The translations under genes were made by a program, and so were the position numbers. From a virus (lineage: Duplodnaviria; Caudoviricetes), in the IMG/VR virus record IMGVR_UViG_3300005670_000019: 64,000 bases of DNA. One strand, written 5' to 3'. This document shows, piece by piece, positions 1 to 63,031 of this stretch. Position 1 is the first letter of the stretch. Every line of letters begins with the position of its first letter. The notes under the pieces were generated by a model. The model was not told the DNA's origin, made no database searches, and saw nothing but the letters and a program-made list of their open reading frames with translations.

Positions 1-1056
1 CATTGGCATTCCATTTTGTCTCATTTCACTTTTCCATTCATCCCAAGTATAAAGCAAAACTTCTGGTTCCCACGGGTTCCATTCATCTTCAACAAAATCT
101 TGTGGTTTCTGTTCTGTGGCAACAACTGTTTCGACCTTCAAGTCTGAAGATGGTATCACTCCTTTATAACCTATTGACTCAATTTTGTCAAGGAAAGACG
201 TCATAAAGTCAGGAAGGTCCGAAATCAAATAGCCTCCAGAAACAGAACCATCGATTTCATTTCTCAAACTATCTTCATCAACAACGATCCTTGAATAGTC
301 TTTTAGGGCTGAACCTCTAATTCTTAGAACGACGCCGGGAACATCAAATCTTGCAAGAAGAGTTTCAGCAATATCCTCAGCATATTCTTTGTCTGCTGTG
401 AGATATACGGCATTTTGTAAATCAAAATTGAGTTGTGTCCAACCTTCACCTTGAGCTGCGCTCTTTGATGGTTTCAATCCTGTTGATAAAATTGATTTCA
501 AATGCTTCATTGAAGTAGCATGAAACCAATCAACATCACTAATCTCTTCAAGAACTTCGAACTTGAATGATTGAAACTCTTGTTCCTTTTCTCTGTCTCT
601 TGTCCATGAAGGAGATTTTCCTTGAATGGTCTTTGCTTTTGCAACCACATCTTTCAAAGTTCCAAGAAATTCAACTTGACCATCTCTTTTGAAATATTCA
701 ATTTTTGCGTTGTTTAGTTCCGGAAGATACTTTGATGTTGTGATTAGTGCTCTTGATGCTCTTGGATCACGAAAAACGTTTGAATAAACAGTGATTGTTT
801 TTCTGTCCGCTGACAATTCAAGCAGAGAACTTGCTTCTCTTTGAGTCGGTCTACTAGGCATCCAAATGCCTTTGTCTTTTGTCTGAGGGTATTCGGCATA
901 AGCTTCTTTTGTTAGTCCCTCTGGGTGAAAGAAGAGTGTCTTGGCTTTCTTGAAGTAATAACGAAAGAATTCAGGACCAAGTTCAGGGTGAAGACCCCAG
1001 TTTGAACTGCCTTCAATTTGTTCTTTCAACTTTACTTTATTCTTTGTAGGTGACAT
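1..1056 (-). CDS. ADP-ribosyltransferase-like (KptA/Tpt1, H-Y type) domain protein; 3' end runs off the window; missed by the ORF track
   Basis: Manual translation from ATG 1056: MSPTKNKVKLKEQ...WFHATSMKHLKSILSTGLKP...NAVYLTADKEYAEDIA...VVLRI; no stop before position 1. HAT...I...GL.P...VYLT is the typical pattern of this NAD-using fold. Confidence 0.7.
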   Translation of the reverse strand, partial: MSPTKNKVKLKEQIEGSSNWGLHPELGPEFFRYYFKKAKTLFFHPEGLTKEAYAEYPQTKDKGIWMPSRPTQREASSLLELSADRKTITVYSNVFRDPRASRALITTSKYLPELNNAKIEYFKRDGQVEFLGTLKDVVAKAKTIQGKSPSWTRDREKEQEFQSFKFEVLEEISDVDWFHATSMKHLKSILSTGLKPSKSAAQGEGWTQLNFDLQNAVYLTADKEYAEDIAETLLARFDVPGVVLRIRGSALKDYSRIVVDEDSLRNEIDGSVSGGYLISDLPDFMTSFLDKIESIGYKGVIPSSDLKVETVVATEQKPQDFVEDEWNPWEPEVLLYTWDEWKSEMRQNGMPM

Positions 1057-1085
1057 GCTATAGTAAATAGTATAAGGAGTTTCTT

Positions 1086-1589
1086 ATGAGTGATATTGAC
1101 AAACTATATGAAGAAATAAAGAAAGAAAAAGAAGAAGAACTGCAAGAGAAATTGAATGTTTCACCTGAAGAATCGGAGCCATCTGTGCAACTTAGAAAGA
1201 AAACTTGCTTTCTTTTAGAAGCTGCATATCTTGCATCATTAGATACAAAAGATATTCTTTTGAAGTCTGTCCTTGAAGAAACTATTACAATTCTTTGGAA
1301 CTGGTTACCAGAAGATGTAAAGGCGGCGACAATGAAAGAAAGAACTCTCGGTGGTGTTCCAGCATCGTCTATAAATCCGTTAGACTGTTGGAAATCTTCG
1401 TTTCCAAATCAATCTGTCGCCAATAACATTTGGGATTATTTGAACAAAGACGAAGAACTCGAAGATATACAAAAATCTATTGATGAAGCAACTCAAAATC
1501 TAGAGTCAAGGATCGAAGCTCTTGAACTTGCAATGCTTAATTTGGCAGAAAAGCTCAAACCTCTAATTCTTCCTGAAGGAACGAAATGA
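1086..1589 (+). CDS. hypothetical protein with coiled-coil termini
   Basis: 167-aa ORF, SD AAGGAG upstream. Confidence 0.7.
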   Translation: MSDIDKLYEEIKKEKEEELQEKLNVSPEESEPSVQLRKKTCFLLEAAYLASLDTKDILLKSVLEETITILWNWLPEDVKAATMKERTLGGVPASSINPLDCWKSSFPNQSVANNIWDYLNKDEELEDIQKSIDEATQNLESRIEALELAMLNLAEKLKPLILPEGTK

Positions 1590-2256: not shown

Positions 2257-2269
2257 CACAGAACTCCTA

Positions 2270-2298
2270 TTGAAACATATTCGTAAATATTGCACAAT
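2270..2298 (+). promoter_or_regulatory. TTGAAA-N17-CACAAT promoter (polA)
   Basis: same TTGAAA-N17-CACAAT architecture at 3605-3633 before the SSB. Confidence 0.6.
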
Positions 2299-2306
2299 GA
2301 GGAGGT

Positions 2307-3587: not shown

Positions 3588-3730
3588 AAAGTTATTGACA
3601 AAATTTGAAAGGAAAAGTGTAGTGAGGCACAATGAAATTGTTCATAGGGAAAGACATTCAAGCCGAAATAACCTATAATAGAAGAACGTTGGATTGTTCC
3701 AACCCCTTACAAATAGAAAGATAAAATATA

Positions 3731-7443: not shown

Positions 7444-8435
7444 ACAATAACGACCAAAGACCAATTGTTGTAATTGATGGAATGAATCTTTTCATTCGAT
7501 ACTTTGCTGTAAATGAAACAATGAGCGCCGAAGGCAACTGCGTTGGTGGCACAATTGGTTTCATCAAAGCTGTGAATGGGATAATTGAAACGTGGAACCC
7601 TTCAAAAGTTTTCATTGCCTGGGAAAAGGGCGGAGGCTCTGAAAGACGGAAGAGAATATTCCCCGAATACAAAGCAAATCGTGCCAAGTCAAAGGTTTTT
7701 GACGAACTCTCACCAGCCCGCTCAGGTCGTCTTCATATGGATGACACCGAGAACAGACAATATCAGCAACTTCTTTTGATCAATCTCTTGAAGAAAACAC
7801 CAATACGACAACTGTACCTCCGCGAGATCGAGGCGGATGACATTATCTCTTTTGTCGTTTCTTCCAAATTCAAAAACTCAAAGGCAAAAAAAGTCATCGT
7901 ATCAAGTGACAAAGATTACTACCAGTTGTTGGATGATGAAAATGTTGTTGTTTATGATCCAGCAACAAGGAGCATCGTGACAAAAAAAGAAGTCAAAGAA
8001 AAGTTTGGAATAGAGGCTCGAAACTTTTGTGTTGCTCGCGCTTTTGTGGGAGATAGTTCCGACAACATTCCCGGTGTTGATGGTGTTGGTATGAAAACTA
8101 TTTCAAAAAGATTTCCTTGTTTGGCTGAAGATAGAGATGTCTATATCCAAGAAGTTCTTGACCTTGCAAAAAAAGAAATGGACAGTGGTTCAAAGATAAA
8201 GGTGCATGGGCTAATCTTAGAGGCTAAGGAAGACGTCTTGAGGAACTGGGAGTTGATGTACCTTCGGGACCTGAATATCTCAGCAACTCAATGTCAAAAA
8301 CTTGAATGGCAAATCGATAATGAAGAAAGAGTATCAGATAAATTTTCCTTCATAAAGGAGCTGATTGCATCAAAAATACCCGTAAATTTTGATGTAGACC
8401 GATTGTTCAGAAATCTGAACAATGTAAATTTGTGA
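7440..8435 (+). CDS. 5'-3' exonuclease / flap endonuclease (T4 RNase H-like)
   Basis: IDGMN, YKANR, EADD, SSDKD, GDSSDNIPGVDGVGMKT. Confidence 0.92.
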   Translation: MNNNDQRPIVVIDGMNLFIRYFAVNETMSAEGNCVGGTIGFIKAVNGIIETWNPSKVFIAWEKGGGSERRKRIFPEYKANRAKSKVFDELSPARSGRLHMDDTENRQYQQLLLINLLKKTPIRQLYLREIEADDIISFVVSSKFKNSKAKKVIVSSDKDYYQLLDDENVVVYDPATRSIVTKKEVKEKFGIEARNFCVARAFVGDSSDNIPGVDGVGMKTISKRFPCLAEDRDVYIQEVLDLAKKEMDSGSKIKVHGLILEAKEDVLRNWELMYLRDLNISATQCQKLEWQIDNEERVSDKFSFIKELIASKIPVNFDVDRLFRNLNNVNL

Positions 8436-8547
8436 CAGGAATTTTTTCACTGAGCCCTCTCTTTATTCCTACCGATGGCTGAAATCAAATCCCGTTTCGC
8501 TTGCCAGCGAGCGGCTTTCTATTCCCTTTTTGAAGGTGGAGAACCAA

Positions 8548-10017
8548 ATGAACTTAGTAGATGAACAGATGATTGAAGAAATAAACGAAGAAACCATACA
8601 GCCAGACGACGACGAAAAACAGCAGAAAAAGCATTTCTCATTTGATAGGAACTTCCAAGAGAAGATTGTTCAAGTTCTATTTCATGATAAGGCATGGGCA
8701 TCTCAAATCCAAGAAATCTTGGATCCATCCTTCTTTGAATATGCGTACCTGCAAGTCATAACACAGATTTATTTCAACTACAACAACAAATACAGAGAAT
8801 ATCCTTCAATTGAACTTCTTAGCACATTGATTGCAGAAAGTTTCAAGTTGAAGAAGATCAAGACAGATCAGTTGTTGATTGCTCAAGTTAGAGCATTTCT
8901 TCCTAAGTTAGTTGAACCAACTAATGTTGGTGACTTTGCTTTTGTAAAAGAGAAAACAACCGACTTCTGTAAAAGAGTCGTTCTTCAACAAGCTCTCGAA
9001 GTATCTGTTTCCAACATTCAAAGAGGAGACTATGACGGCGTTGCTGAAACAATTAGAAAAGCCCTTGCAAAAGGAATGACTAATACAAAGGGTTTGGATT
9101 TGTTCAACCCAGCAGACATTGATGCAAGATACAATGGAGTATTTCGTAGAACAATTCCAACTGGTCTTGATGAACTTGATGGCAGAACCATTTTGAATGG
9201 TGGTCTTGGTCAAGGTGAGATTGGATTTGTTGTTGCTATGTCAGGTGTTGGTAAGAGCCATCTTCTTACTCACTTTGGAGCTGAAGCAATGCGTCGTGGT
9301 TTCAATGTTCTTCACTACACATTTGAGTTGAATGAAGGTGCTATTGCTATTCGATATGACTCAAACTTGATTGGTGTTGATTCATCTTATTGCTTTGAAC
9401 ACAAAGAAGCAATCAAGAAGATGTATGAAGACAACAAGGACGTGTTTGGACGTTTGATTATCAAGCATTATCCAACAAACCAAGCGAATGTAAACGTTCT
9501 TCGAGGACACATTGAAAAGTTGAAGACCGACGGATTCTCGCCGGATCTCATTCTTGTGGACTATGCTGGCATCATGCGTTCAACTGAAAAGAGCGATCTT
9601 CTTCGTATTGAGTTGAAGAAGATTACGGAAGAGCTTCGAGCTTTGGCAGACGAAGTGCGTGTTCCTCTTTGGACAGCTCTTCAAGCTAACAAGGAAGCCG
9701 CAGGAAATGATATTGTTGACATGACAAACATGGCAGAGAGCTTTGCTCAAGCTGCGGCAGCAGATTTTATTCTTGGTCTTGCAAGAAAGTCAGAGCAAAA
9801 ATCGACAGGTATTGGAACGTTGTTCATTGCCAAGAACAGAGCAGGAAAAGATGGATTGAAGTTCAATATTCATCTTGACACAGCTCAATCAAGATTGCGA
9901 TTTCTGAATAGTTCAGAAACACCTACATCTGGATATACTTCAAAAGCTGGAAAAGAAGCTTGGAAGCGAATTCAAGATGGACTCGATGGTACTTCTATGA
10001 AGTTAGAAAATTTGTGA
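8548..10017 (+). CDS. DnaB/gp41-like replicative helicase
   Basis: Walker A AMSGVGKS, YTFEL, LVDYA, WTALQAN, AKNRAG; probable start ATG 8548. Confidence 0.92.
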   Translation: MNLVDEQMIEEINEETIQPDDDEKQQKKHFSFDRNFQEKIVQVLFHDKAWASQIQEILDPSFFEYAYLQVITQIYFNYNNKYREYPSIELLSTLIAESFKLKKIKTDQLLIAQVRAFLPKLVEPTNVGDFAFVKEKTTDFCKRVVLQQALEVSVSNIQRGDYDGVAETIRKALAKGMTNTKGLDLFNPADIDARYNGVFRRTIPTGLDELDGRTILNGGLGQGEIGFVVAMSGVGKSHLLTHFGAEAMRRGFNVLHYTFELNEGAIAIRYDSNLIGVDSSYCFEHKEAIKKMYEDNKDVFGRLIIKHYPTNQANVNVLRGHIEKLKTDGFSPDLILVDYAGIMRSTEKSDLLRIELKKITEELRALADEVRVPLWTALQANKEAAGNDIVDMTNMAESFAQAAAADFILGLARKSEQKSTGIGTLFIAKNRAGKDGLKFNIHLDTAQSRLRFLNSSETPTSGYTSKAGKEAWKRIQDGLDGTSMKLENL

Positions 10018-15431: not shown

Positions 15432-15452
15432 GGGAGCAACCGCTCCCTTTTT
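15432..15452 (+). terminator. intrinsic terminator
   Basis: GGGAGC-AACC-GCTCCC-TTTTT, immediately followed by a TACTTA motif. Confidence 0.7.
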
Positions 15453-15465
15453 CATACTTATTCTC

Positions 15466-16320
15466 ATGACAAAACTAAAGAAAATTCTCTTTGAACAAGA
15501 AGATATGGTTCCAAAAGAACGTGGCTCAATGCATGTCTCAAAAGGTGATGACGAACGCTTTTGGGGAAACCGTGGAGCAGGCATTCTTCTAATTGCAAAA
15601 GATACAGGGAGACTTCTGTTGGTTTTGCGTTCAAATGAAGTAAACGAACCAGGCACTTGGGGAATACCTGGCGGAGCCATTGATGACGAAGATGAAAGCG
15701 AAGTTAGTGCCGCAAAAAGAGAAGCACATGAAGAAGTTGGATATCGTGGTCCAATCGAAATTCATGCTTCATATGTTTTCAAAGCTGCTAAGTTTAGATA
15801 CTTCAACTTCATTGGGATCGTTCCAAAAGAGTTTGAGCCTCGACTTGATTGGGAAAATGATGAAGCTGGATGGTTTTCCATGGATGAACTTCCGTCACCT
15901 CTTCACTTTGGTTTGAAAGCCCTTCTTCAAAACTCCGCAAAGCAGATTGCTTCATTTACTGTTTCGGCTCAAGACCTTCAGGAGGCTTTCATTTCCGACC
16001 TTGATGAAAGAGAACTTCCTTCAAACGAAAGTCTGTGGGATAAAGCAAAACAGCTCGCGATGGTAAAGTTTGGTGGAGTTCCGACAAGTAAAGGTTATAA
16101 GTGGGCAAAGAAATGGTACCACTTCAAGGGCGGCAATTGGAATGAAGTAAAGCCAAAAGTCAGAGAGGCTCTCATTCATGAAATGAATGCAATTTCTGCT
16201 GGTGGCGCATCTCTTGTTTCATCGGGACAAATTGCTGGTTCTGCCAATGCTCCAATTGGTTCAAAGGCAAGAAAAAAAGCTAAGCAGAAAATGTGGGCAG
16301 AATACAAAATAAACAAATGA
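15466..16320 (+). CDS. Nudix hydrolase with K..L.E leader and basic C-terminal module
   Basis: Nudix box GGAIDDEDESEVSAAKREAHEEVG; starts MTKLKKILFEQ; C-terminal LWDKAK...WAKKWY..KGGNW module. Confidence 0.85.
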   Translation: MTKLKKILFEQEDMVPKERGSMHVSKGDDERFWGNRGAGILLIAKDTGRLLLVLRSNEVNEPGTWGIPGGAIDDEDESEVSAAKREAHEEVGYRGPIEIHASYVFKAAKFRYFNFIGIVPKEFEPRLDWENDEAGWFSMDELPSPLHFGLKALLQNSAKQIASFTVSAQDLQEAFISDLDERELPSNESLWDKAKQLAMVKFGGVPTSKGYKWAKKWYHFKGGNWNEVKPKVREALIHEMNAISAGGASLVSSGQIAGSANAPIGSKARKKAKQKMWAEYKINK

Positions 16321-17997: not shown

Positions 17998-18273
17998 ATG
18001 ACAAATCCAACAGATGAAGACCTCCGCAAAAAGCTTTTTGCTCTACGAAATAAGAGTGTTGAGAAAACGAATCTACCTCTTGCCATAGAAAAGATCACGA
18101 ACATTATTCGTACATGTGGACCTGTAAGAGCAAAGGAGGTCCGTCTACTAATGGAGGAGATAGGATTTTCACCATTTCTTTCTCGTACAGCAATTGCAAA
18201 AATGTGGGATACCGGACTCATAAATGTCTCCAATGAACAATATCTTCTATTGGTAGAGGATAAAAAAGAATGA
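17998..18273 (+). CDS. putative winged-helix DNA-binding protein
   Basis: GPVRAKEV...SRTAIAKMWDTGLINV; own promoter at 17961-17989. Confidence 0.5.
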   Translation: MTNPTDEDLRKKLFALRNKSVEKTNLPLAIEKITNIIRTCGPVRAKEVRLLMEEIGFSPFLSRTAIAKMWDTGLINVSNEQYLLLVEDKKE

Positions 18274-19073
18274 AAAGTCCACTTCGCTATCCTGGCGGAA
18301 AGTCAAGACTGATAAAAGAAATCCTCAAGTTCAAACCAAAAGATATCACAGAATACAGAGAACCTTTTCTTGGAGGAGGTTCTCTTTTCTTTCATTTACT
18401 TGATGACAAAGAGATTGAAATCTTCAAGGCAAGCGATACCTTTCCGGAGTTGATCAACTTCTATCAGACAATGCTTCAAAGCCCGCAGGAGCTCGTGCAG
18501 GTCATTGAAAAAATGAAGATGACCAACGAGCCATCCAAACTCTTTTCATTTTCCAAAAGCCTCCTAACGAACAAGAACTCTCATTCAAACATTGAGCAAG
18601 CTGCCGCTTTCTTCATTTTGAACAGAACATCATTTTCCGGTTTGACAATGTCTGGAGGTTTTTCAAAAGCCTCTTATGATGGACGCTTCAAGAAGCCTCA
18701 CATAGAAAAATGTGGAAGTCTAAAAAATGTGAAGAAACAAATCCAAATTAAAGAAGCTTCTTATGAAGAACTTCTATTTCAACCGACAGAGAACAAAACA
18801 TGGATCTTTCTTGATCCTCCATATGATATCAAATCATCCAATCTGTATGGGAAGAATGGTGATGGGCACAAAGGATTTGATCACGAAAAATTAGCCATTG
18901 ACTGCAAGAATAGTCAACACCAATGGTTAATTACATACAACAACAATGAACACATCAGAAACCTTTATGAGGGTTGGGCATTCATTCAAGAAGTTGATGT
19001 TGTTTACAATATGAACAGTTCAGGTAAAAAACGAAAAGAATTGTTCATCACAAACTACAAGGTTGATCAATGA
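18270..19073 (+). CDS. N6-adenine DNA methyltransferase, D12/Dam class
   Basis: LRYPGGKS, EPFLGGGS, FLDPPY. Confidence 0.93.
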   Translation: MKSPLRYPGGKSRLIKEILKFKPKDITEYREPFLGGGSLFFHLLDDKEIEIFKASDTFPELINFYQTMLQSPQELVQVIEKMKMTNEPSKLFSFSKSLLTNKNSHSNIEQAAAFFILNRTSFSGLTMSGGFSKASYDGRFKKPHIEKCGSLKNVKKQIQIKEASYEELLFQPTENKTWIFLDPPYDIKSSNLYGKNGDGHKGFDHEKLAIDCKNSQHQWLITYNNNEHIRNLYEGWAFIQEVDVVYNMNSSGKKRKELFITNYKVDQ

Positions 19074-20203
19074 AAATAAAAAAACTACTTTTTGAAACTG
19101 CAACAAAAGCAAACGCCGGTGATGTTAGTGAAGGTATTCTTGGTGCTGCTTGTACGGCTAGATTTCTTTATGGTTCTGAGAAACCAATAACACAAAAAGA
19201 AATCTGGACAGTCATTGAACAGTTGAACAAAACAACAAACAAATCTACTGGATCAACCGTTTTGAAATCAAAAACCTTTTCAAAACCACCATCAGTGAAG
19301 CCAGGTCAACCAAACTCCATTACACTCACTGTAGGACTATCCGAAAACAATTATGCAGGTTTCATTGACCCCATTTTCTTTCAAAGCATTGATGGAATTG
19401 TGAGAGCGGCGGCAGCATTTGCTTCTTCACCTTCCTTCATCCGTCTTGTAAAGAATGTTGAAATGAGTGCAAAGGCAAACAAAATTGAGATTTCCTCAGT
19501 TGGACTAGAAGACCAAAAGGGAACAAAGGTTGACCTCAAAATTGCTATTGATGGAAAGGTCGTTCCTCTTGGTGCTCTTTCTCTAAAAGCTGGAGGAACA
19601 AAACAAGTTGGACAGATTGGAAAAGGTTGGGCAGCTTCAAAACCTGGCGCCTCGCGTGGTATTGTTGACCTTTTTCGTGCTCTCTTTGGAGTAGAAATCA
19701 ACAAGAACCTTCAAAAGCAATATGAACAGGCTCTAAGCTCTGCAAACTATGTTGCAATCAGTCAAGCAATTGATGAAGTTTACTACGACTGCTTCAAACA
19801 AGTAAGCAAAAAGTTTGATAGTGGAGTAAACGAAATTTCGGATTTCATCATTGGTCTTGCAAAAGCAATCAAATACGAAGCCATGCTTGAAGAAGAAGGA
19901 GTTATTCTTGTTCATCTTGATGCAGGTAATTTCAAGGCACTTGACTTTGGAAAATTTGTTTCATTGGCAAATGATGAACAAGTTGAAATGGATGTTGAAA
20001 TCCAATATCAACCACCTGCATCCTATGAAAACTCTGTTCCTTATCTTTTCGTCAATTTGAAAGTAGATGGACAAGACTTTGGAAAGTTGATTTCAATTCG
20101 TCCAAAGATTAGAGTCGAAGAAGGTGTGAAAGTGAAAGAGTTTAGACACTATGTTCAAAAGGAAAGTGGTCTTGCCAAACTTCTTTCTATTGATCTTGAC
20201 TGA
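19070..20203 (+). CDS. putative PD-(D/E)xK restriction-like endonuclease with K..L.E leader
   Basis: GDVSEG, KGTKVDL...LSLKAG; translationally coupled (ATGA) to the methylase; starts MKIKKLLFE. Confidence 0.55.
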   Translation: MKIKKLLFETATKANAGDVSEGILGAACTARFLYGSEKPITQKEIWTVIEQLNKTTNKSTGSTVLKSKTFSKPPSVKPGQPNSITLTVGLSENNYAGFIDPIFFQSIDGIVRAAAAFASSPSFIRLVKNVEMSAKANKIEISSVGLEDQKGTKVDLKIAIDGKVVPLGALSLKAGGTKQVGQIGKGWAASKPGASRGIVDLFRALFGVEINKNLQKQYEQALSSANYVAISQAIDEVYYDCFKQVSKKFDSGVNEISDFIIGLAKAIKYEAMLEEEGVILVHLDAGNFKALDFGKFVSLANDEQVEMDVEIQYQPPASYENSVPYLFVNLKVDGQDFGKLISIRPKIRVEEGVKVKEFRHYVQKESGLAKLLSIDLD

Positions 20204-20501
20204 AAAACTCATCTTCCATTGGTTTAGGATTGAGGAGCTTCGTAAGCTCCTCTTTTGTTTTTTTGGCTCCATTACCTAGTTGGATTTGTCCTGAAGCATC
20301 TGTTGCCCAAAACACAATCTTTTCTTTTCTTTTTGGAGAGGTAAGAAAGAAGATGCAACTCTTTCCATGTTGAACACCACGAAAAACAACGTCATTTTTC
20401 CATTTATCAACAATGTACTTTAGAGTTTCAAACTCTTCTGGATATTTCTGTTTGAAATCTTTTATCAAGACCACGAGTTTTTCTTTTGAAATATTGAGCA
20501 T
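20187..20501 (-). CDS. hypothetical protein
   Basis: 104-aa ORF with TACTTA 5 nt before the ATG. Confidence 0.6.
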   Translation of the reverse strand: MLNISKEKLVVLIKDFKQKYPEEFETLKYIVDKWKNDVVFRGVQHGKSCIFFLTSPKRKEKIVFWATDASGQIQLGNGAKKTKEELTKLLNPKPMEDEFFSQDQ

Positions 20502-20537
20502 GACTTTAAGTATATTCAGAATGTGCTATGATGAGAC

Positions 20538-30621: not shown

Positions 30622-31728
30622 TCAATCCTCAATACAGTTTAGCAACTTTAGAACTCTTTTTCTTCTTGCGCCATCAGTAGCAACACTCATTCCATGTTGA
30701 GAAATTAGATTGACAATCTCTGGCGTTGCTCCTTCTTCTTTGGCTACTTGAAACACCTTCATTATTGTTTGAAATGATGACCTATTTCCTGTTGCAACCC
30801 AAGACTGAATTGGGGCAATGATGGACTTCAAAGAAATCTCATTGAGCTCTCTTTTGATTTGCTCATAAGTGATTTTCTTTCGACTATCATCAAGCGTTCT
30901 AATATCAGTATCTTTTTCTTTCTTTACCCATCGTCTTGGTTTTACAAGATAAGCAGAACTAAATGGAGACATATCCACAACGTCATCATCAAGTTCTGGA
31001 TCACCCAAAAGAAGCGGTTCAGTTTCTTGTCTGATCGTGTCCACTGTCTGGTCGGTTATAGCCTTTGCAGAAGCCGATCGTAAATACCAGCGAGTTGGGT
31101 CCGCTTGTTCTTCTAGCTCGCCTTGGAGGGCTGGTTTTGGATTGCTCAAAACCAATCTGTTGGCATCAACCGGAACAGTGTAAAGGTGACCCTGTTGATA
31201 CATACTTGTTGACTCATAGTCATTAGGTGTATTCAATGGCTCACTGTCAGCAAGAATATCATCCAATTCACTATCAACATGTTCTACTTCATATGGTTCT
31301 TTTCGGTCTTGAGGAACAAAGTTTTGTGGTTTTGCAAACCACATTCTTTTTGGAGTTCCTGGCAAATCAAAGTAATTTTGATCTGCTGGTGTTCTTTGAG
31401 TTCCATATGCATATGGAGCAAGCTGCTCAAAGAGTTCATCATCTTCTTTTGAAGCTCTTTCTAAATCTGTCAAGTTGTCTGGTCCTGCACCCGGACCATT
31501 TACAGTTGCAGGAAAAGAATAGTCATACCCACCATCCCATTTTCCAAGAACTTCTTCTTCGTGTTCAATGTTTTGATTGACTTCAGAATCTTCCTGATTT
31601 GTCATTTTTTGAACAGAAGGATCAAGTGGAGCTGCCATTTGGTTTTGATTTCCAAATCCCCAAGGCTTTCCATTTCCAAGAAATGTTTGTGCCCCAGCCA
31701 ACACTCCTGTACTAACTTGTTTCTTCAT
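30622..31728 (-). CDS. acidic hypothetical protein, possible head-associated protein
   Basis: 368 aa; TACTTA 5 nt before the ATG; internal KKITYEQIKRELNE. Confidence 0.65.
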   Translation of the reverse strand: MKKQVSTGVLAGAQTFLGNGKPWGFGNQNQMAAPLDPSVQKMTNQEDSEVNQNIEHEEEVLGKWDGGYDYSFPATVNGPGAGPDNLTDLERASKEDDELFEQLAPYAYGTQRTPADQNYFDLPGTPKRMWFAKPQNFVPQDRKEPYEVEHVDSELDDILADSEPLNTPNDYESTSMYQQGHLYTVPVDANRLVLSNPKPALQGELEEQADPTRWYLRSASAKAITDQTVDTIRQETEPLLLGDPELDDDVVDMSPFSSAYLVKPRRWVKKEKDTDIRTLDDSRKKITYEQIKRELNEISLKSIIAPIQSWVATGNRSSFQTIMKVFQVAKEEGATPEIVNLISQHGMSVATDGARRKRVLKLLNCIED

Positions 31729-31827
31729 AAAGATAAGTAGTTGGGTTTATTTCATGTTAGATTTTTTCTTTTTGCTCTCATTTGAAATGATAATCCGGTA
31801 TGTTATGATATAGTGATTGGAGTACAA

Positions 31828-39432: not shown

Positions 39433-40122
39433 ATGAATTTAGAAATGCTTGCAAAAAAAGTTGTGATGAGTGATCAGTTTGAAGAACTAAAAGAACTCAT
39501 GCCTCAACTTTATAGACTAACACAGAACCTTTACAAAGATGTTGAATATGGTTCTGTGTCGCCTGATCTTCAAGAAAGAGTTGAAAAACACTTCAAATAT
39601 CTTTGGAGATATTTGAATCTTGGCGACAACATTTCTTTGACAGGACCGGAGGCTGCGTTTGTTGGGGATATGCATAGAAATGCAAAAGCGATAAGAACAA
39701 TCCAAAGTGATAAAAGGAGAGCTTCAATGTTTGGTGAAAGTAAGAAAATTACAAAGAAACAAATCAACAAACTCATCGAGAGCATTGTTGCTGAAATGTG
39801 TGATGAAGAGTTGAACGAGAGTGAGCTTTCTCCTGATCCCGAATGGGATACAATTCAAGGAGCTCCAATGCATCAACGTTATCCAGGCTCCTTTGAAGAA
39901 GATGGACAAAGACCTGATTTGAAAGAAGGAACCAATATCCGTTGGGATAATGGAGTTTACAAGGCAGCAATCAGTGCAAATAAAACAGCAGAACTTATTG
40001 GCAATTTGATTAGTCACTCAAATGGACTAAATGAAGATCAACTTTTCAAATTGAAGCAAACTCATGAAAAAGCATCTCATCTTGCCAAACTTGTTGAGAT
40101 TATGAAAAATTGGAGAAGTTGA
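39433..40122 (+). CDS. putative head-internal protein
   Basis: internal KKITKKQINKLIESIVAE motif. Confidence 0.6.
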   Translation: MNLEMLAKKVVMSDQFEELKELMPQLYRLTQNLYKDVEYGSVSPDLQERVEKHFKYLWRYLNLGDNISLTGPEAAFVGDMHRNAKAIRTIQSDKRRASMFGESKKITKKQINKLIESIVAEMCDEELNESELSPDPEWDTIQGAPMHQRYPGSFEEDGQRPDLKEGTNIRWDNGVYKAAISANKTAELIGNLISHSNGLNEDQLFKLKQTHEKASHLAKLVEIMKNWRS

Positions 40123-40123
40123 A

Positions 40124-40375
40124 ATGAAGATTACGAAGAAACAAATTCAAAAACTTGTTGAGAGTATCATCAAAGAGCAACAACTTGACATAAGCACTAG
40201 AGTTGAAAATCTTGAAGCGATGAGAAAAGCAATTGTGAGATATCATGCTCACGCAGAAACACTTTTTGAATTACCAACATTTCAAAGACAGTTTGAACGA
40301 GGACTGAGAGAAATTGAAGAGGCTGTAAGCAATCAAATCTTTGCTCTTCAACATCCATACACTGACAAAGACTGA
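40124..40375 (+). CDS. putative head-internal protein
   Basis: MKITKKQIQKLVESIIKE leader. Confidence 0.65.
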   Translation: MKITKKQIQKLVESIIKEQQLDISTRVENLEAMRKAIVRYHAHAETLFELPTFQRQFERGLREIEEAVSNQIFALQHPYTDKD

Positions 40376-40379: not shown

Positions 40380-41192
40380 ATGAAAATCTCTCCAAAACAA
40401 CTTGATCAATTGATTGAAAGCCTCGTTGAACAGGCTTTCAATTCTCGTTTCCCTTCTGGAGATCCATATAAGAAAACTGATGTGGATAAAGACGTAGTGA
40501 AACTGAACAAGTATATGGAGACAACTGGTTTGTTCTTTCATTTCAGTGAAACAGGAAAGATTGGTATCAATCCTAAATCTACTGACCATCCGGGAGTTCG
40601 TGGATTTTATGGTTTTCTTCTAACGCCAAAAGAGTTCTTTCAGGAAAGTCACCATGAATGGTTCACAAAAAGAAAGTATATTGTTGTCTTCAAACTAAAG
40701 CCTGGTTTGAATATTCTGGAGCTTCGTAATAGATATGATTTGGATAAGACCTTGAAAAGGGGTCAATTCACATTGCAAATAAGAAAAGAGCCTTTGGACA
40801 GGCATCTTACCAGCAAAGCTGAACAAACAAGACTTCTTCAAAAGATGAACTTTGATGGGGTGTTCTCTGGACAACAGTTCTTCATGACAGATATGAAAAA
40901 TGAACTGGTTGTCTTTCCGCCTTACCAAAATAAAATTGAAATCGTTGATATCGTAAAAAACCCTCTTCACACTTACAAACAAAACAGAGAGTTTTACGAT
41001 CCCGTACATGACGGACCTCCAGATGAAACACCTCCTGTAAGAGTTCCTCCAAAGTATCAAGATAGCAGAGCTTCAAAGAAAAGAAGTGCGAAGAACAAAC
41101 TTCAAACTAACAAAGAACCAAAGAGTCGTAGTGAAGCCGAGAAGAGAAGGAAGAAGTTTGTGGATGACAACAATAGGGATCCACTCGATTGA
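40380..41192 (+). CDS. ART-like (polyvalent-protein type) domain with MKIS.KQ leader
   Basis: MKISPKQLDQLIESLVE; FHFS...KIGINPKS...GFYGF...NFDGV...ELVVF. Confidence 0.5.
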   Translation: MKISPKQLDQLIESLVEQAFNSRFPSGDPYKKTDVDKDVVKLNKYMETTGLFFHFSETGKIGINPKSTDHPGVRGFYGFLLTPKEFFQESHHEWFTKRKYIVVFKLKPGLNILELRNRYDLDKTLKRGQFTLQIRKEPLDRHLTSKAEQTRLLQKMNFDGVFSGQQFFMTDMKNELVVFPPYQNKIEIVDIVKNPLHTYKQNREFYDPVHDGPPDETPPVRVPPKYQDSRASKKRSAKNKLQTNKEPKSRSEAEKRRKKFVDDNNRDPLD

Positions 41193-41246: not shown

Positions 41247-41810
41247 ATGAGCTTCTTCAAAACAAAACCCCATGAAAAGATTGGTCAAGCGCGCATAAAT
41301 GTGAAAGACCAGTCTTCTGGTTATGGAACAAATATTATCATCAAAACAGTTCGTCTTCCTGATGGTGTCATTGAGAAGTTCTTTGTTACTGATGACGGCG
41401 ATAGTGTCCAGATATTTGCTATAACCCATATGAACGAAGTGATAATGGTAAGGCAGTGGCGTCCGGGAAATGAGTCGGAGGGGCTAGAACTGCCTGGTGG
41501 TGGCTTAGAGAAGGGTGAAGACCCACTTGACGCTGCCGAACGAGAACTTGTTGAAGAGACAATGTTCTCTGCCGGACGAATGGAATACCTTGGAAGTTGT
41601 CCTTATTCTCCATACTCTAATGGAAGACGTCATATGTTCTTTGCAAGAGACTGCGTTAGAACAGAGAAACACCTTGATTTAGATGACAATGAACACTTAC
41701 AGGTTGTGAAGATGCCTTTGGACATATTCGTTGCCAAAATCAAAGAAAGTCCCGCAAGTATTCGAGGATGGGATCTTGCACTTCTTGCATTGAATAAGTT
41801 TGGATATTGA
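41247..41810 (+). CDS. Nudix hydrolase, ADP-ribose pyrophosphatase-like
   Basis: VRQWRP...LELPGGGLEKGEDPLDAAERELVEET...LDDNE. Confidence 0.88.
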   Translation: MSFFKTKPHEKIGQARINVKDQSSGYGTNIIIKTVRLPDGVIEKFFVTDDGDSVQIFAITHMNEVIMVRQWRPGNESEGLELPGGGLEKGEDPLDAAERELVEETMFSAGRMEYLGSCPYSPYSNGRRHMFFARDCVRTEKHLDLDDNEHLQVVKMPLDIFVAKIKESPASIRGWDLALLALNKFGY

Positions 41811-41859
41811 GATATTAGAACTGTAAGAAGTGGTAAGCTATTTACCCAAAAGAGGAAAT

Positions 41860-42858
41860 ATGAAGATTACAAAGAAACAATTTGACCGCCTCGTTGAAGG
41901 TTTGGTAAAAGAACAATGGGCAGATTGGGAACTGGGTTTAGGAGAAAAACCTGATGAACAAGATGAAAAGTTCCCGTTTCCTAATGATCCTGATCTGCAT
42001 GACAATGACCTAGAAGACGAGGATCTCAACGAACAGTTCGAGTGGACTGATGAAGAACTTGCTTCAATGGGCGATGAAGAAAGTGACAAAGAAGAAGCAG
42101 ACCAATGGTTTTCTGACTTTACGGGAGAACTAACTGGAACTGAAGATGAAGATGATGATGACTATCCTTGGGATGATGAGTTTGTTGGCAAGGCAGACCG
42201 TTCAGAACGAGGAATGCAGGAAGCGAAAAAGAACAGATGTTGGGATGGTTACAAGCCTGTGAAGGACAAGAAGCCTTACTCGAAGGGCTCCTGTGAAAAA
42301 GTTGATGAAGCTGTTGGTGTAGAACAGGATGAGGAATTAGAACAGGCTAGAAGAAAATTTATTGGGAAAAAAATTACTGTAAAAGATGGTGATGTTGCAA
42401 GAATAGTTCAAGTAACAAGAGAAGAAAGAAGTGGTCGTTTGATGGCTTGGTACGAATATGAACGTGTCCAAGTTCACACTGGATGGGTATGGGTAGATAA
42501 ACTTGAGGAAAAACTTCAAGAAGCAAAAAAGAAAAAGAACAAATCTCCATCTGAAAAGGTTCGCAAACCAACAGCCCCTCCTTCACGTCAGCACAAAGAT
42601 CCAACCAAGTATGATCGTAAGAGAGACAAGAAGAACGTCGATTTGAATGAGATGCGTCCAATGAGCCGAAGAGGTTCGATGATGCAAGGAAAAGGAGAGA
42701 ATGTGTCTTCCTTTTTCGTCAACAAGATGATGGCAGAAATTAAGCGTCTTCTAAAAGGAAAGATGGATTGGGTAGACTTAGATTCAATTCAAAGACTTGA
42801 AAAAGCTCTAACTGATGTTGCACGCCAAGCTTATAGTGAACTTGATGAAGTTGATTGA
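41860..42858 (+). CDS. acidic/basic putative head-internal protein
   Basis: MKITKKQFDRLVEGLVKE leader, several L.E sites, CWDGY motif; TATTTA upstream. Confidence 0.65.
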   Translation: MKITKKQFDRLVEGLVKEQWADWELGLGEKPDEQDEKFPFPNDPDLHDNDLEDEDLNEQFEWTDEELASMGDEESDKEEADQWFSDFTGELTGTEDEDDDDYPWDDEFVGKADRSERGMQEAKKNRCWDGYKPVKDKKPYSKGSCEKVDEAVGVEQDEELEQARRKFIGKKITVKDGDVARIVQVTREERSGRLMAWYEYERVQVHTGWVWVDKLEEKLQEAKKKKNKSPSEKVRKPTAPPSRQHKDPTKYDRKRDKKNVDLNEMRPMSRRGSMMQGKGENVSSFFVNKMMAEIKRLLKGKMDWVDLDSIQRLEKALTDVARQAYSELDEVD

Positions 42859-42866: not shown

Positions 42867-43487
42867 ATGAAGGAGCAAAAGTTCAATACAGGCAAGGAAC
42901 GAAATCCGTACATTTCAAAACATCCAGATCATGAAGAATGGGAAATTGTCTTGGAGAAAAGAAATGGAACGTGGGTTTGGAATGGAGATGGATGGTCACA
43001 ACCATTTTTGTTTAGACGAACAAAAGAACCAAAAATATTCACATCTCCTGAAGAAGCAAAGCAAGAACTCAAAACCGTGGTCTTACCTTACATTCTCAAA
43101 TGGCAACCGGGAGTATGGGAAGATTATGTTGTTGGTCACGAACTTCCTGATGGATATCAACTAAAAACAGAAAGCAGAAAAATGAAGATTTCAAAGAGAC
43201 AGCTTGATAAACTTGTTGAGAATGTTGTAAAGAAACAACTTCAAGAAAGAGCTTCAAAAGACGAAAATATGAAGACTATCCAAATCATGAAGGAACTTCT
43301 TCTACGACTTCGTACATACGCTGATAAACTTACAGCTCCCGGCGAAACCACAATGAATGACAACACAGTCAAAGACATTCACAAATACCTTGAAGAGATT
43401 GAAGGATGGCTTGAAGGATATGAAGCATTTATTGATCTTGACGTCTTCTGGAATAGACTTGATAGTCCATATCGACCAGAGAAATGA
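42867..43487 (+). CDS. putative head-internal protein
   Basis: internal MKISKRQLDKLVENVVKKQLQE. Confidence 0.6.
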   Translation: MKEQKFNTGKERNPYISKHPDHEEWEIVLEKRNGTWVWNGDGWSQPFLFRRTKEPKIFTSPEEAKQELKTVVLPYILKWQPGVWEDYVVGHELPDGYQLKTESRKMKISKRQLDKLVENVVKKQLQERASKDENMKTIQIMKELLLRLRTYADKLTAPGETTMNDNTVKDIHKYLEEIEGWLEGYEAFIDLDVFWNRLDSPYRPEK

Positions 43488-59872: not shown

Positions 59873-59875
59873 CGT

Positions 59876-60466
59876 TCATTCGCTGAACAGTTCAGGTAGA
59901 ACAGATTTCAACCAGTTTCTAACTTCTCCTTGAGGCATTTCACCAAGGTCTTTATAGGGTTTTGGTGTGCTGATAGACATAGAAGCAACAGACTTTAGTT
60001 TATTTCCAGCATCGTCATTGTCGGCAACGGCAATGACTTTTTTATTCATGGCAGCAAACCATGGTTTTAGCATCTTAGGATGATTTGCTAGAACAGCAAT
60101 TGCAGGCATTCCAATGTTGTGCAGCTTGACAGCATCAAAGATACCCTCTGTGACAAATAGGAAATCTTGGTTGTCAAAGACAGTTTCCAAGCCCCAAACA
60201 CCAATGGTCTTTTCTGGATGTTTTGTAATATACGTCCAGTATTTTGCCTTATCCCTGTCTCTGCTGTCGTTACCTGTCTTGGTTCCTTTTGGATTGTATT
60301 GTTGATATCCAACGAGTTGACCGGAAAGGTTGAAAAGAAGGAAAACGGCAAGGTTGTTTTCCTTGTCCATAATCACCCGTGTCTTTGATAGATCAACATC
60401 ACGCGATCGAAGATGGGATTCAATGTCATCATTCTCACATAAAAGAATTTGTTTTAGAGAAAACAT
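59876..60466 (-). CDS. primase-like Toprim protein without zinc-binding domain
   Basis: FVTEGIFDA, VADNDDAG, KDLGE; starts MFSLKQILLCE. Confidence 0.8.
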   Translation of the reverse strand: MFSLKQILLCENDDIESHLRSRDVDLSKTRVIMDKENNLAVFLLFNLSGQLVGYQQYNPKGTKTGNDSRDRDKAKYWTYITKHPEKTIGVWGLETVFDNQDFLFVTEGIFDAVKLHNIGMPAIAVLANHPKMLKPWFAAMNKKVIAVADNDDAGNKLKSVASMSISTPKPYKDLGEMPQGEVRNWLKSVLPELFSE

Positions 60467-60481
60467 TTGAGTTTATCTTTC

Positions 60482-61201
60482 TCACAAGTTTGCGAACATG
60501 TCCTTGAAAAGGAATTTTGAATTAGCACGAGGTTCCCCAGTTTGTTTTGATTCTTCTGGATTGATCCAAATGATCATTTTCTCATAACGAACAGGACCAT
60601 AAGAAATTACTTCGTTCTCTTTCTTATAAAGTTTTGGCATCTTTACCTTTGAGTTCAACTCATCAGGATTTAGCAGAAACTTACCATTCTTCTTTATTGG
60701 CATTGTCTTGAACAAAACAACATATTCTTGGAAAGAATATGCAAATTCTTTCAGAATTTCTTTTTTTGTAGTCCATGACAATATAGGAGAATGCTCTGTT
60801 TCCAATACACCATTTTCAAAAACCCAAAGACGTTCGTCGCCAGGATTTCTTGCAAGGTCTTCTTTTGATAGTCCAGTCGTATTGAAAAACAAATCTAAAT
60901 TTACAGAACTAAAAGAAATTCCTCTATAAATCGGTTCATTTTCCGGAACAAGTAAGTTTGAATACTTGCCTTTCTGTGCCAGTTTGTAAACGTCCGGAAA
61001 TTCCTGAGCTATTTTGTCCGCCACCTGACTATTGATCCATTGAAAAAGTCCTTTCTTGAAATCTTCTTCTTCTGGAGTCTCTGGTTGTTTCTCTGTTTTT
61101 GAAATGTCTTTTCTGTCTCTATCAAAGAGATACTTGCCAAAAACATCATTTGGTTTGGCTTCGGACGGAGCGTCTTCAAATATTAATTTTTTGATGCTCA
61201 T
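60482..61201 (-). CDS. R-S-E type ADP-ribosyltransferase-like protein
   Basis: PIYRG, LSWTT, ENEV; leader MSIKKLIFE. Confidence 0.65.
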   Translation of the reverse strand: MSIKKLIFEDAPSEAKPNDVFGKYLFDRDRKDISKTEKQPETPEEEDFKKGLFQWINSQVADKIAQEFPDVYKLAQKGKYSNLLVPENEPIYRGISFSSVNLDLFFNTTGLSKEDLARNPGDERLWVFENGVLETEHSPILSWTTKKEILKEFAYSFQEYVVLFKTMPIKKNGKFLLNPDELNSKVKMPKLYKKENEVISYGPVRYEKMIIWINPEESKQTGEPRANSKFLFKDMFANL

Positions 61202-62106
61202 GACTCTTCTGTCTTTTCTGGATAGTTTACACGACCGCCACTCATCGTTGCACCAGAGAAAAGGTCATTGAAGAACGGAATGACAAACTTTCTTCCTTTG
61301 TAAATCGAATAAAAATCATCTTGATCTTGCGCAACAGGAAGAACAACACTTCTTGGTTCCGTGGCATTTCCAGAGCCATCTGTGTAAAGAAGTTCTGCTT
61401 TCATTTGACCATCTTCTTGTCTCTCAACGAAGATTACACTTTCTTGTTCAAACTTCTTTCCAAGGAAAAGTAGATCATCTTTCGAAATGTTTGGAATAAC
61501 TAAAGGCTTTTCAACGTTTCCATATTTGCCTTGTATTTGGTAGAAACCATAACCAGCTTGACGTAGAGATTGTGCAAGCATCTTGTTTCTCTTCTTGTTT
61601 TCTTCTGGAGGCAGTTCCTTCGCAAATGGATTTTCTGCTGTCACAATTCCGATTGATGAAATGTTTTTTTCTTGTCCTGTGAGGCTTCTCATCAGTTTTG
61701 AATATCCACCCTCTGCAAGGTCCCCTTCATTTATTTGCACAGCCTCAGAGAGCCTTCTAGGTGCCTTGCCGTTGAAGCCAAATAGATGAGGTGAGACAAG
61801 AGCAGGACGAACAGAAAGAAGGTCACGAAGTCGAAGTTTACCTTCACCATAAAGGTCAACAATTTCAATTCCTCGTTTCTCTTCATCTTCATTTTCTTTG
61901 CTTGATTTATCATCCCAATACCAAGGTGCTTCATCATTTGGATTTGGAAGTTGAAGTTCATCCTGCTTCTGCTGATTTCTTTCGTCTTCTTCTTTCTTTT
62001 GACGATCAATCTCCCAAGGAGACGGAACCCAATCTTGTTCACTTAGGGTTTCTGAACTTGAGATGTTTTCTTTGATTGTGAACTTTTTCTTCTTACTCAT
62101 TTTCAT
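61198..62106 (-). CDS. SAM-lyase / DUF3293-like protein with acidic N-terminal extension
   Basis: IVTAENP...EN..RN..L...L...GKYG..E...LGKKFEQESVI...AELLY..G...GRKF. Confidence 0.6.
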   Translation of the reverse strand: MKMSKKKKFTIKENISSSETLSEQDWVPSPWEIDRQKKEEDERNQQKQDELQLPNPNDEAPWYWDDKSSKENEDEEKRGIEIVDLYGEGKLRLRDLLSVRPALVSPHLFGFNGKAPRRLSEAVQINEGDLAEGGYSKLMRSLTGQEKNISSIGIVTAENPFAKELPPEENKKRNKMLAQSLRQAGYGFYQIQGKYGNVEKPLVIPNISKDDLLFLGKKFEQESVIFVERQEDGQMKAELLYTDGSGNATEPRSVVLPVAQDQDDFYSIYKGRKFVIPFFNDLFSGATMSGGRVNYPEKTEES

Positions 62107-63031
62107 TCTCCATCAGATCATACATGCTTCGGATGATCCTTCTTAGGGATACGGTACCAAACTCATTTGATATAAATACTGCTGTCGCAGCTTGAACTTT
62201 CACATCTCCGAAAGAAATAACTTCACCTTCAGTCGAAAGCATGTTGATCATTGCCACATGATCGCTGTCCTTCGGTCGTAAGTTCGAGGTCATTTCATAA
62301 GGGTTTAGAAGGAATTTTCCATTTGATGGATTGGGCACTGTCTTCATCAAGATATTCACTTCTCCCCCTTTTAGGAAATTCTGCAATATAAGAGGCTCAA
62401 TTCCCCAAGACTGAAGTTTTTTGTTTGGCGGCGGATAAGAAATAGGAATATCGACTTTGAAAGGAATATTATCAAGAACTTTTTGGAGCTCAATACCATT
62501 CTTCAAATCTTCAATCTTTTTCTGAAAGGTTGGATTTGATGTTAGTCCAAGGGCTTTTGCCACATTGAAACCATGAACAATCCGATAAACAGGACGTTCT
62601 TCATCTGGCTTTAGAAACTTTTCATACTTTCCTTGACGAACAAGTTTCCAAGCTTCTTCAAAATTGGATGAAAGGGCAGTGTGATGAGTGTCGTTTATCC
62701 AAGACGCTAAGGAATCAAGAAGTTCATCTTCTTCGGGGGTATTCTTTTCTTTTGAAGCCCTAGTTTCAGCTCGCTGATCACCAAACAAAAACTCTCCAAA
62801 GATATCATCTTTGGAGGCTTCGACTTCTTGTTCAACAATCATATCAACAATGCCTTCAAGGACCGATTGAAGTTGTTCTTTTTCCTTTGAGGAAGCTACA
62901 TCTTCAAGACCTTTCAAAGCCTGTTTCTTGGCATCGAGTTTCTTTTGTTTCTGACGTTCTGCATAGGACTTTGCATCAGTACCTAAAGCTGTGTCAGTTG
63001 AACCGACTTTCGTTGGTTTCGTAGGAATCAT
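62093..63031 (-). CDS. R-S-E type ADP-ribosyltransferase-like protein, paralog of 60482..61201
   Basis: DIFGEFLF, GKY, PVYR, LQSWG, GKFLLNP, EGEVISFG. Confidence 0.6.
   Translation of the reverse strand: MIPTKPTKVGSTDTALGTDAKSYAERQKQKKLDAKKQALKGLEDVASSKEKEQLQSVLEGIVDMIVEQEVEASKDDIFGEFLFGDQRAETRASKEKNTPEEDELLDSLASWINDTHHTALSSNFEEAWKLVRQGKYEKFLKPDEERPVYRIVHGFNVAKALGLTSNPTFQKKIEDLKNGIELQKVLDNIPFKVDIPISYPPPNKKLQSWGIEPLILQNFLKGGEVNILMKTVPNPSNGKFLLNPYEMTSNLRPKDSDHVAMINMLSTEGEVISFGDVKVQAATAVFISNEFGTVSLRRIIRSMYDLMENENE

Follow-up and report, generated by a model that had tools for sequence, protein, structure and literature searches.

In bacteriophage T4 the prohead protease gp21 cuts after L/I-x-E, and the capsid targeting sequence (CTS) consists of the first 10 residues of the internal protein IPIII, of which residues 4 and 7 are linked to targeting and residues 8 and 10 to processing (PMC9026906). 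The T4 CTS reads MKTYQEFIAE (PMC8442874), and apart from it the T-even internal proteins are diverse (PMC3012670). Alt of T4 is processed at both ends, and the CTS has already been suggested as the means by which T4-like phages load various proteins (PMC9026906). The CTS as a way of loading diverse proteins into the head is already known and is not new. This report concerns a stretch of Caudoviricetes DNA of 64,000 nucleotides (nt), IMG/VR record IMGVR_UViG_3300005670_000019, referred to in full as the window, in which unrelated proteins share a basic-hydrophobic leader peptide ending in Glu. The DNA belongs to an uncultured T4-type phage of very large size. With fair confidence, these leaders are read as this phage's equivalent of the T4 tag for capsid targeting and processing, in a much expanded version with two forms. 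By analogy with T4, the tagged enzymes are probably packed in the capsid, for delivery along with the DNA.

Two further systems bear comparison. Polyvalent proteins and packaged phage effectors were described by Iyer et al. 2017 (PMC5512222). In the phiKZ-like giants (phiKZ, 201phi2-1, SPN3US) a diverged gp21 homologue cleaves many proteins of the head interior after Glu, with multiple sites per propeptide (PMC9026906).

A shared leader on unrelated proteins

The leaders fall into two classes. The short class is 9–10 residues long and follows M-x-x-K-[KQ]-[LI]-[LI]-F-E (also written Mxx(x)K[KQ]##FE, where # is hydrophobic), so that P3 is L/I and P1 is E. The long class spans 13–20 residues as MK[IL][TS]xKQ#xxL#E, with an L/I-x-E site at residues 11–13. 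Regions past the window ends were reached by looking up exact protein matches in public contigs, whose proteins are identical to those of the window in the overlap. The contigs walked (L002, L008, L009, L012, and L017) are assemblies from other samples and are near-identical to the window in the overlap. The leader-bearing genes of the window and the internal copies of the peptide, the latter found with a profile hidden Markov model (HMM) unless stated, are as follows.

1–1056, minus strand: 5′ part of the gene for a 556-residue protein, complete in L017 at 8301–9971 (minus strand); N-terminus MSPTKNKVKLKE, leader ..KVKLKE.
15466–16320, plus strand: Nudix hydrolase (PF00293), short leader MTKLKKILFE.
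19070–20203, plus strand: putative PD-(D/E)xK nuclease-like protein of 377 residues, short leader MKIKKLLFE.
30841–30882, minus strand: loose internal leader-like segment KKITYEQIKRELNE, at about residue 283 of the 368-residue product of 30622–31728; seen by eye, not by HMM.
39745–39795, plus strand: internal long-form copy KKITKKQINKLIESIV, residues 105–121 of the 229-residue product of 39433–40122; HMM score 27.4.
40124–40375, plus strand: 83-residue protein, long leader MKITKKQIQKLVESIIKEQ; no Pfam or PHROG match.
40380–41192, plus strand: 270-residue protein, long leader MKISPKQLDQLIESLVEQ.
41838–42858, plus strand: CTATTTA (41838–41844), then a very acidic 332-residue protein from 41860, long leader MKITKKQFDRLVEGLVKEQ.
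43182–43241, plus strand: internal long-form copy MKISKRQLDKLVENVV, residues 106–125 of the 206-residue product of 42867–43487; HMM score 24.8.
59876–60466, minus strand: Toprim-domain protein of 196 residues (PF13155), leader MFSLKQILLCE.
60482–61201, minus strand: putative ADP-ribosyltransferase (ART)-like protein of 239 residues, short leader MSIKKLIFE and, behind it, the conserved segment PEA...FGxYLF.
61198–62106, minus strand: DUF3293/S-adenosylmethionine (SAM)-lyase-like protein of ~300 residues, leader M(KM)SKKKKFTIKE.
62093–63043, minus strand, including CTATTTA: putative ART-like paralogue of 312 residues, leader-like helix ..LQSVLEGIVDMIVEQEVE at about residues 53–71.

All N-termini quoted in an earlier, sequence-only reading of the window translate as given there, including MKITKKQIQKLVE at 40124, MKISPKQLDQLIE at 40380, and MKITKKQFDRLVE at 41860. 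The weakest of the listed leaders are KVKLKE (1056) and the single-Lys Toprim leader, and in the 62093 product the leader-like helix sits behind an N-terminal extension.

The positions of the two classes were counted in 131 proteins, comprising the window genes and 38 genes from ~45 kb past the window end; 13 genes before the window start were added later. The long-class pattern K[KQ]#..[LI][VIA]E has seven matches, six at residue 6 and one internal, while the short-class pattern [KR][KQ]###E has four, every one at residues 4–5. Combined, 10 of the 11 matches to these tight patterns are N-terminal. A strict leader definition, drawn up post hoc, fits 12/131 N-termini, with 1.3 expected from internal positions and 2.1 ± 1.4 from shuffled N-termini. 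A profile HMM built from seven N-terminal copies recovered three internal copies outside its training set, in 39433, in 42867, and at residue 85 of the L012:16044 product. Two of the three internal copies noted in the sequence-only reading, 39433 and 42867, are thereby recovered, and the third, in 30622, stands as a looser match that the HMM did not return. When all proteins were compared by all-against-all BLASTP with leaders removed, only 60482 and 62093 were paralogous, which upholds the earlier claim that unrelated proteins carry the same leader. On the pattern counts, HMM recovery, and leaderless BLASTP, the shared peptide is real, N-terminal, and carried by unrelated proteins. In total there are ~18 tagged genes in ~135 kb, and none of the recognisable replication or nucleotide-metabolism genes of the window has a tight leader.

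These data bear most directly on the idea that the leaders reflect chance resemblance, or simple paralogy of a few genes. A loose version of the motif is indeed frequent, fitting 34/131 N-termini, 60482 and 62093 are paralogues, and KVKLKE at 1056 is weak. For the core set, however, chance and paralogy are ruled out by the tight-pattern positions, the HMM, and the leaderless BLASTP. With 10 of 11 tight matches at N-termini, no cargo similarity once leaders are removed, and leaders of the same kind both in three unrelated cargo families and in a phage with a 40%-identical capsid protein, this explanation is very improbable overall.

A T4-type protease and capsid protein

The window itself has no capsid, portal, or protease gene. 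Walking past its end, the genes found in order are tail tube, two sheath paralogues, a T4 gp13-like neck protein, and the head module. This module lies ~45 kb past the window end, is of T4 type, and encodes a portal, a 287-residue protein, a Peptidase_S77 protein, proteins of 166 and 171 residues, an acidic protein of 730 residues, and a Gp23-family capsid protein. The gp21-family protease matches PF03420 (Peptidase_S77) at E=2.1e-20 and 73.5 bits against a cut-off of 27, and keeps the His and Ser motifs as GELDHA and GISSRALGS (GELNHP and GVSSRGLGS in T4 gp21). Its own N-terminus is MAKFLKE. The 730-residue scaffold-like acidic protein contains 30 #-x-E sites.

The capsid protein aligns with T4 gp23 over KWK..LLEG (T4 KWKPLLEG) and I#ENQ. 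Its propeptide ends at a predicted cut site, ..AELLRE|ANSLSTGG, the T4 counterpart of which is ..FLTE|AEIGG. Among the matches listed, the site is LL[KR]E in most clade relatives. More than 7000 capsid-protein clusters match the protein (L012:10001–11908) at E<=1e-100; among the 120 clusters listed most are ~70% identical, and several lie on contigs of ~240–340 kb. The phages concerned form a very large T4-type clade that is uncultured and has big genomes.

Further leader genes accompany this module and the neighbouring structural genes. A 166-residue leader-bearing gene product is encoded directly after the protease gene (MKMSGKQFKSLIKE), two leader genes lie between sheath and tube (MKLTSKQINKLAE and MKITKKQLSKLVE), and one lies near DUF5661 (MKLSKKKLGALIE). 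Leader genes also occur downstream of the tube gene, and the 62093 gene is the first of an operon that comes after the tail tube gene, according to the gene order in L002 and L008. On the other side of the window, the operon that begins with the window's first gene encodes further leaders (MSKIKMNENQLRGLVRE.., MNILKE.., and MAKITSKQLESLV..). The genes for a 503-residue protein and the 556-residue protein in L017, just before the window start, have a multi-module look by eye, with [LI]xE at the junctions. Past the neck gene, the leader MKTIKQLIFE (L008:3725) agrees with the T4 CTS in 5 of 10 residues, I8 and E10 among them.

The head genes also bring in an alternative in which the leaders belong to prohead-core proteins, either as propeptides that the protease removes or as helices that are kept, and do not address enzymes. 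The small long-form proteins would then be scaffold or core parts like T4 gp67 and gp68, and on enzymes the peptide would keep the protein inactive until the protease acts. T4 offers precedents, as gp67, gp68, and gp22 begin with the same kind of short [LI]xE peptide (in the T4 record gp67 MEGLIE, gp68 MLLIPE, gp22 MLKE, beside gp21 MNEPQLLIE and gp24 MAKINE). One long-form gene stands between the protease and scaffold genes, and the conservation of the long form goes beyond the first Glu, which would also suit this account. It is harder to reconcile with the scattered genes outside the head module, for Nudix, Toprim, ART-like, and nuclease-like proteins, that carry the same leader classes. 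Moreover, in T4 the same 10 residues serve both targeting and processing (PMC9026906), and a cytoplasmic zymogen role would need no prohead-resident protease. This alternative is regarded as unlikely.

Several observations on the structural genes are of separate interest. The portal gene (L012:1929–5159; 1076 residues) contains an intein (PF14890 with PF07230); the version in a second contig has 1044 residues. The tail-sheath paralogues are in tandem, with 1016 and 994 residues (L008:10001–16807 and L009), and a GIY-YIG homing-endonuclease gene between them is present in some contigs and absent in others.

The Nudix protein and a copy of the capsid cut site

The assignment of the Nudix protein (15466–16320) is firm, with PF00293 at E=3.7e-15 and 56.5 bits against a cut-off of 21.1. 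Its listed homologues have leaders of the same kind, several of them on contigs of ~220–460 kb. Towards its C-terminus it contains a further element.

16171–16251, plus strand: copy of the capsid maturation site, Nudix residues 236–262; LIHE|MNAISAGGASLVSSGQ against LLRE|ANSLSTGGASLVSSGQ in the capsid protein.

This segment spans the predicted capsid cut site and the first 23 mature residues, with 16/27 identical residues (E=9e-7), and is the only other match to the capsid site in ~135 kb. At the DNA level only 50/81 positions are identical, so that it is no recent duplication. Both of the nearest Nudix orthologues retain the capsid-like segment. Of the 120 capsid clusters listed, ~50 were parsed in a pattern count, and two of these, both from this phage, have the shared decapeptide GGASLVSSGQ. 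The segment fits either a second processing site, like that at the C-terminus of T4 Alt, or a role in docking to the shell, and suggests a second, undescribed coupling of cargo to capsid maturation. A second Nudix-like gene, at 41247–41810 (187 residues; PHROG nudix hits), lies inside the long-leader cluster and is itself without a leader.

Other candidate cargo

The family of the 60482 product comprises 173 cluster representatives. Many members have a variable helix ending #-#-E, then (E/K)PEA, and then the conserved FGxYLF. In an alignment of 102 sequences with a mean column identity of 16%, the leader Glu (E9), R93, W143, and E197 are each conserved to 90% or more, with YR93, S-W143-T, and E-x-E197 nearly invariant. 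The AlphaFold2 (AF2) model of 60482 has a predicted local distance difference test (pLDDT) value of 89.9, and the top-ranked matches of a VIA fold search are almost all ARTs, at weak Z scores of 5.3 and below. Foldseek gave no match for this model at E<=0.001, the 102 members have no hit to a Pfam ART model, and tblastn against cultured phages found no match to 60482. A PDB sequence search returned nothing useful for 60482, 1–1056, or 19070. The R / S-W-T / E-x-E pattern, together with the weak but one-sided fold matches, makes an ART-like identity plausible. Two further pointers in this direction are language-model leads from the Atlas. For the 556-residue protein (1056), which has a WFHATS domain followed by RVLKE/ALLKE sites and an acidic Gly-rich tail, the nearest named clusters are Arr-ms/PARP/Tox-ART-HYD1 at 0.90, and for the 270-residue protein (40380) the pointer is to ART-PolyVal at 0.88.

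The 19070 product is a plausible PD-(D/E)xK nuclease-like protein, again on weak but one-sided fold matches. Its AF2 model (pLDDT 91.8, with residues 1–10 below 50) matches MspI in VIA at Z 7.1 over 196 aligned residues and HinP1I at Z 6.0, followed by Dna2, a Cas4-family protein, and AddAB nuclease domains, all at Z <8; with Foldseek nothing matched at E<=0.001. Invariant positions are D155 and S171-L-K173. The phrog_3560 match starts at residue 12, and homology to cyanophage open reading frames (ORFs) likewise begins right after the leader. Among 115 homologues the extension ahead of the core ranges from 6 to 249 residues, a few have none, and 76/115 have [LI]xE within the first 20 residues. 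In the AF2 models of both 60482 and 19070 the leader is of low confidence and is not packed on the cargo domain.

The gene at 18270–19073, whose product begins with an RYPGGK motif, ends with a stop overlapping the start of the 19070 gene, an arrangement that resembles a restriction-modification pair. As no methyltransferase gene is adjacent in two homologue contexts, an obligate pair is not supported.

The SAM-lyase-like assignment of 61198–62106 is confirmed by PF11697 (E=4.4e-12; 46.9 bits against 25) and PF23780 (30.9 bits against a cut-off of 28). The Toprim match of 59876–60466 is marginal (PF13155, 24.5 bits against a cut-off of 22.1, E=3.6e-5), and no primase zinc-finger or catalytic domain was found in this protein. 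Of the enzyme labels given in the sequence-only reading, Pfam therefore bears out the Nudix, Toprim, and SAM-lyase-like ones, whereas the two ARTs and the nuclease are plausible on motifs, weak folds, and Atlas leads.

Leaders in related phages

Near-identical leaders head different protein families in relatives. MK[IL]K[KN]L[IL]FE is found on both nuclease-like and ART-like family members, and the MFSLKQ.. of the Toprim leader recurs as MFSLKQLLEE at the head of the ART-like family member P0152 from another metagenome. This is the picture that would be expected of a portable, protease-constrained tag. A distant relative, the 484-kb phage LR756508, has the capsid protein that is 40% identical. 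Within 41 kb around its capsid gene there are ~20 small ORFs starting MK[IL][TS]ExKLRx##[KR]EE, as well as about six tandem ORFs of ~250 residues with MRLKxxLLKE-type leaders, two of which have an evident YRGT motif. No such leaders were found around the head genes of LR756511, a huge phage with a T4-like capsid protein, and for this reason the tags are no general feature of huge phages.

Two fusion proteins were also seen in relatives. P0003 combines the leader MKSISKLIFE with a zeta-toxin/AAA-type kinase domain, a ..FLRE junction, and a nuclease-like core. P0170 joins an ART-like domain to a preceding N-terminal part that resembles the Nudix protein of the window. Both look like polyproteins with protease-type junctions.

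A promoter-like motif upstream of leader genes

TA[TC]TTA occurs 31 times in the window. Ten copies are no more than 40 nt ahead of a start on the same strand, where 0.8 would be expected, and all four copies of CTATTTA in the window lie ahead of a start. The motif heads genes of the tail-fibre cluster in the window and the portal gene outside it. Leader genes 1056, 15466, and 41860 are directly behind a copy, which for 1056 is a CTATTTA at 1064–1070, 13–14 nt upstream of the start. Another copy stands before the operon 63031–59876, which holds three more leader genes, and here CTATTTA is 11–12 nt before the ATG of the 62093 gene. The earlier statement that most leaders lie behind TA(T/C)TTA is correct only if operons are counted, as three of nine window leader genes follow it directly and three more through this operon, leaving 19070, 40124, and 40380. 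The arrangement ahead of the Nudix gene can be read from the sequence.

15432–15460, plus strand: GC-rich hairpin and T-run (15432–15452), then TACTTA (15455–15460), 11 nt before the Nudix ATG.

This looks like a terminator followed by the Nudix gene's own late-type promoter. In five cases TA[TC]TTA starts 11–13 nt before the ATG without a Shine-Dalgarno sequence between them (15455–15466, 63031–63043, 1056–1070, 31728–31739, and 20501–20512), and other window genes carry strong GGAGG-type sites. Such late-type transcripts may be leaderless or nearly so.

Packaging tag or other role

If the leaders are the counterpart of the T4 tag, a short N-terminal amphipathic peptide would bind the scaffolding core during prohead assembly and would be removed by the gp21-type prohead protease after its terminal [LI]-x-Glu. 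The long form might be cut also, or instead, at a second #-#-x-E(Q) site a few residues on. The freed enzyme would stay in the head with the DNA and could leave with it at infection. The candidate cargo comprises the Nudix protein, two ART-like paralogues, the SAM-lyase-like protein, the PD-(D/E)xK-like protein, the Toprim protein, and several small proteins. The proposal of a portable packaging tag in the sequence-only reading is partly supported. Each prediction that the T4 model makes for the sequence and that could be checked agrees with it, namely an S77 protease, a capsid L-x-E site, CTS-like leaders, unrelated cargo, late-looking or structural gene contexts, and a conserved Glu, while we infer the steps of core binding, cleavage, virion residence, and injection before transcription.

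A different view is that the shared N-terminus is an amphipathic helix with a role outside the capsid, such as membrane or partner binding or oligomerisation, or that it reflects Lys/A-rich codon selection after the start. Starts with MK.. or otherwise rich in Lys are frequent where genomes are AT-rich, the hydrophobic residues of the long form are spaced in a way compatible with a coiled coil, and several leader genes are found among tail genes. Codon bias, however, leaves the invariant Glu with Leu/Ile two residues before it unexplained, and the same holds for the PEA spacer after the leader, for the Nudix copy of the capsid cut site, and for the likeness to the LL[KR]E site that the capsid protein itself has. 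This view is improbable, and slightly more so than the prohead-core alternative.

A number of points weigh against the packaging tag itself. [LI]-x-E is low in information, as reflected in the 34/131 N-termini that fit its loose version, and three of the nine window leader genes (19070, 40124, and 40380) have no TA[TC]TTA nearby. Conservation of the long form continues beyond the first Glu (..E.##.EQ), and the long form could for this reason be a retained structural or coiled-coil helix; some of the small long-form proteins may be parts of the core or scaffold and not cargo. The internal copies near residue 105 of two proteins are unexplained by a simple N-terminal tag, and several leader genes sit within tail gene clusters. 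A ClpP-family gene is near nuclease-like homologues in two contigs, so that leader-bearing relatives may not all depend on the S77 protease. Finally, the head module was taken from contigs of other samples and not from the window's own assembly.

The T4-like packaging tag is nonetheless the favoured explanation. A more ambitious and tentative version is that a large environmental T4-type clade loads dozens of enzymes through a modular address code of two classes, with the Nudix protein additionally tied to capsid maturation by its co-varying copy of the cut site and N-arm. This is possible but falls short of probable. Should the tags function like those of T4, the proteins delivered with the DNA before phage gene expression could be listed by a simple sequence rule. 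The delivered set is where first-minute counter-defence would be expected, namely SAM destruction, hydrolysis of nucleotides or signals, ADP-ribosylation of host proteins, and cutting of host DNA. Such a rule would provide a testable catalogue for a large uncultured clade and, if true, would yield natural tags with which phage heads could be loaded with foreign proteins.

The window and its occurrence in other assemblies

The 64-kb window has a GC content of ~0.39. Its replication and nucleotide-metabolism genes include a DNA polymerase A fragment, a gp32-like single-stranded DNA-binding protein, RecA/UvsX, a DnaB-type helicase, and ribonucleotide reductase. It also contains a tail-fibre, baseplate, and tape-measure-like region and many further ORFs without family matches. 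The tape-measure-like gene had no megablast match in phage records, leaving cultured phages without a DNA match, and a tail-fibre-like protein had only a distant match, in a 735-kb metagenomic phage. An exact 45-mer from the window was not matched in the viral contigs searched. Single-protein scans of viral contigs returned one 32-kb contig for the 19070 product, at 99% identity, and no match for the 60482 product. Contigs of the phage are present in ERZ761587–ERZ761601 and JGI 3300005669–3300005675, source samples in which it is abundant. Between 52000 and 58000 the GC content is 0.44–0.50, against ~0.38–0.40 elsewhere, and this segment differs among public contigs of the phage, some of which have and some of which lack small ORFs and GIY-YIG genes. 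The segment resembles a variable or acquired island.

Comparison with known systems

The predicted Glu cleavage of head-internal proteins by a gp21 homologue is shared with the phiKZ-like giants. Those phages differ in using S/A-x-E and not L/I-x-E, and neither their capsid protein nor their gene order is of T4 type. Propeptide processing in phiKZ-like giants is proven by proteomics, whereas here it is a prediction from sequence.

As in the polyvalent proteins, putative ART and nuclease enzymes together with Nudix-type and Toprim ones appear among late or virion genes with predicted delivery alongside the DNA, and some relatives are fusions, namely P0003 (leader, zeta-type kinase, and nuclease-like parts) and P0170 (Nudix and ART-like parts). 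In contrast to one giant chain, the enzymes here are mostly separate genes, each with its own leader, and the tagged proteins of the window mostly have one detected domain each. Processing here would be carried out by the prohead protease instead of a peptidase domain within the chain.

The closest likeness is to the T4 CTS and the propeptides removed by gp21 (IPI–III, Alt, gp24, gp67, and gp68), which are likewise N-terminal peptides of ~10 residues ending [LI]-x-Glu. The T4 core proteins gp67, gp68, gp21, gp22, and gp24 also begin in this manner. Both phages combine a gp21-family S77 protease with a Gp23 capsid protein that has an L-x-E maturation site, and in both the tag is carried by unrelated proteins, among them a putative ART-like protein of the R-S-E type, comparable to Alt. 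The Nudix protein, with its copy of the capsid cut site near the C-terminus, has a predicted site that recalls the processing of Alt at both ends. Unlike in T4, the cargo has no sequence homology found to the T4 internal proteins, a second and longer leader class of 13–20 residues is present, and internal leader copies occur, as does a copy of the capsid cut site near the C-terminus of one candidate cargo protein. The repertoire is also much larger than that of T4 and is mostly enzymatic.

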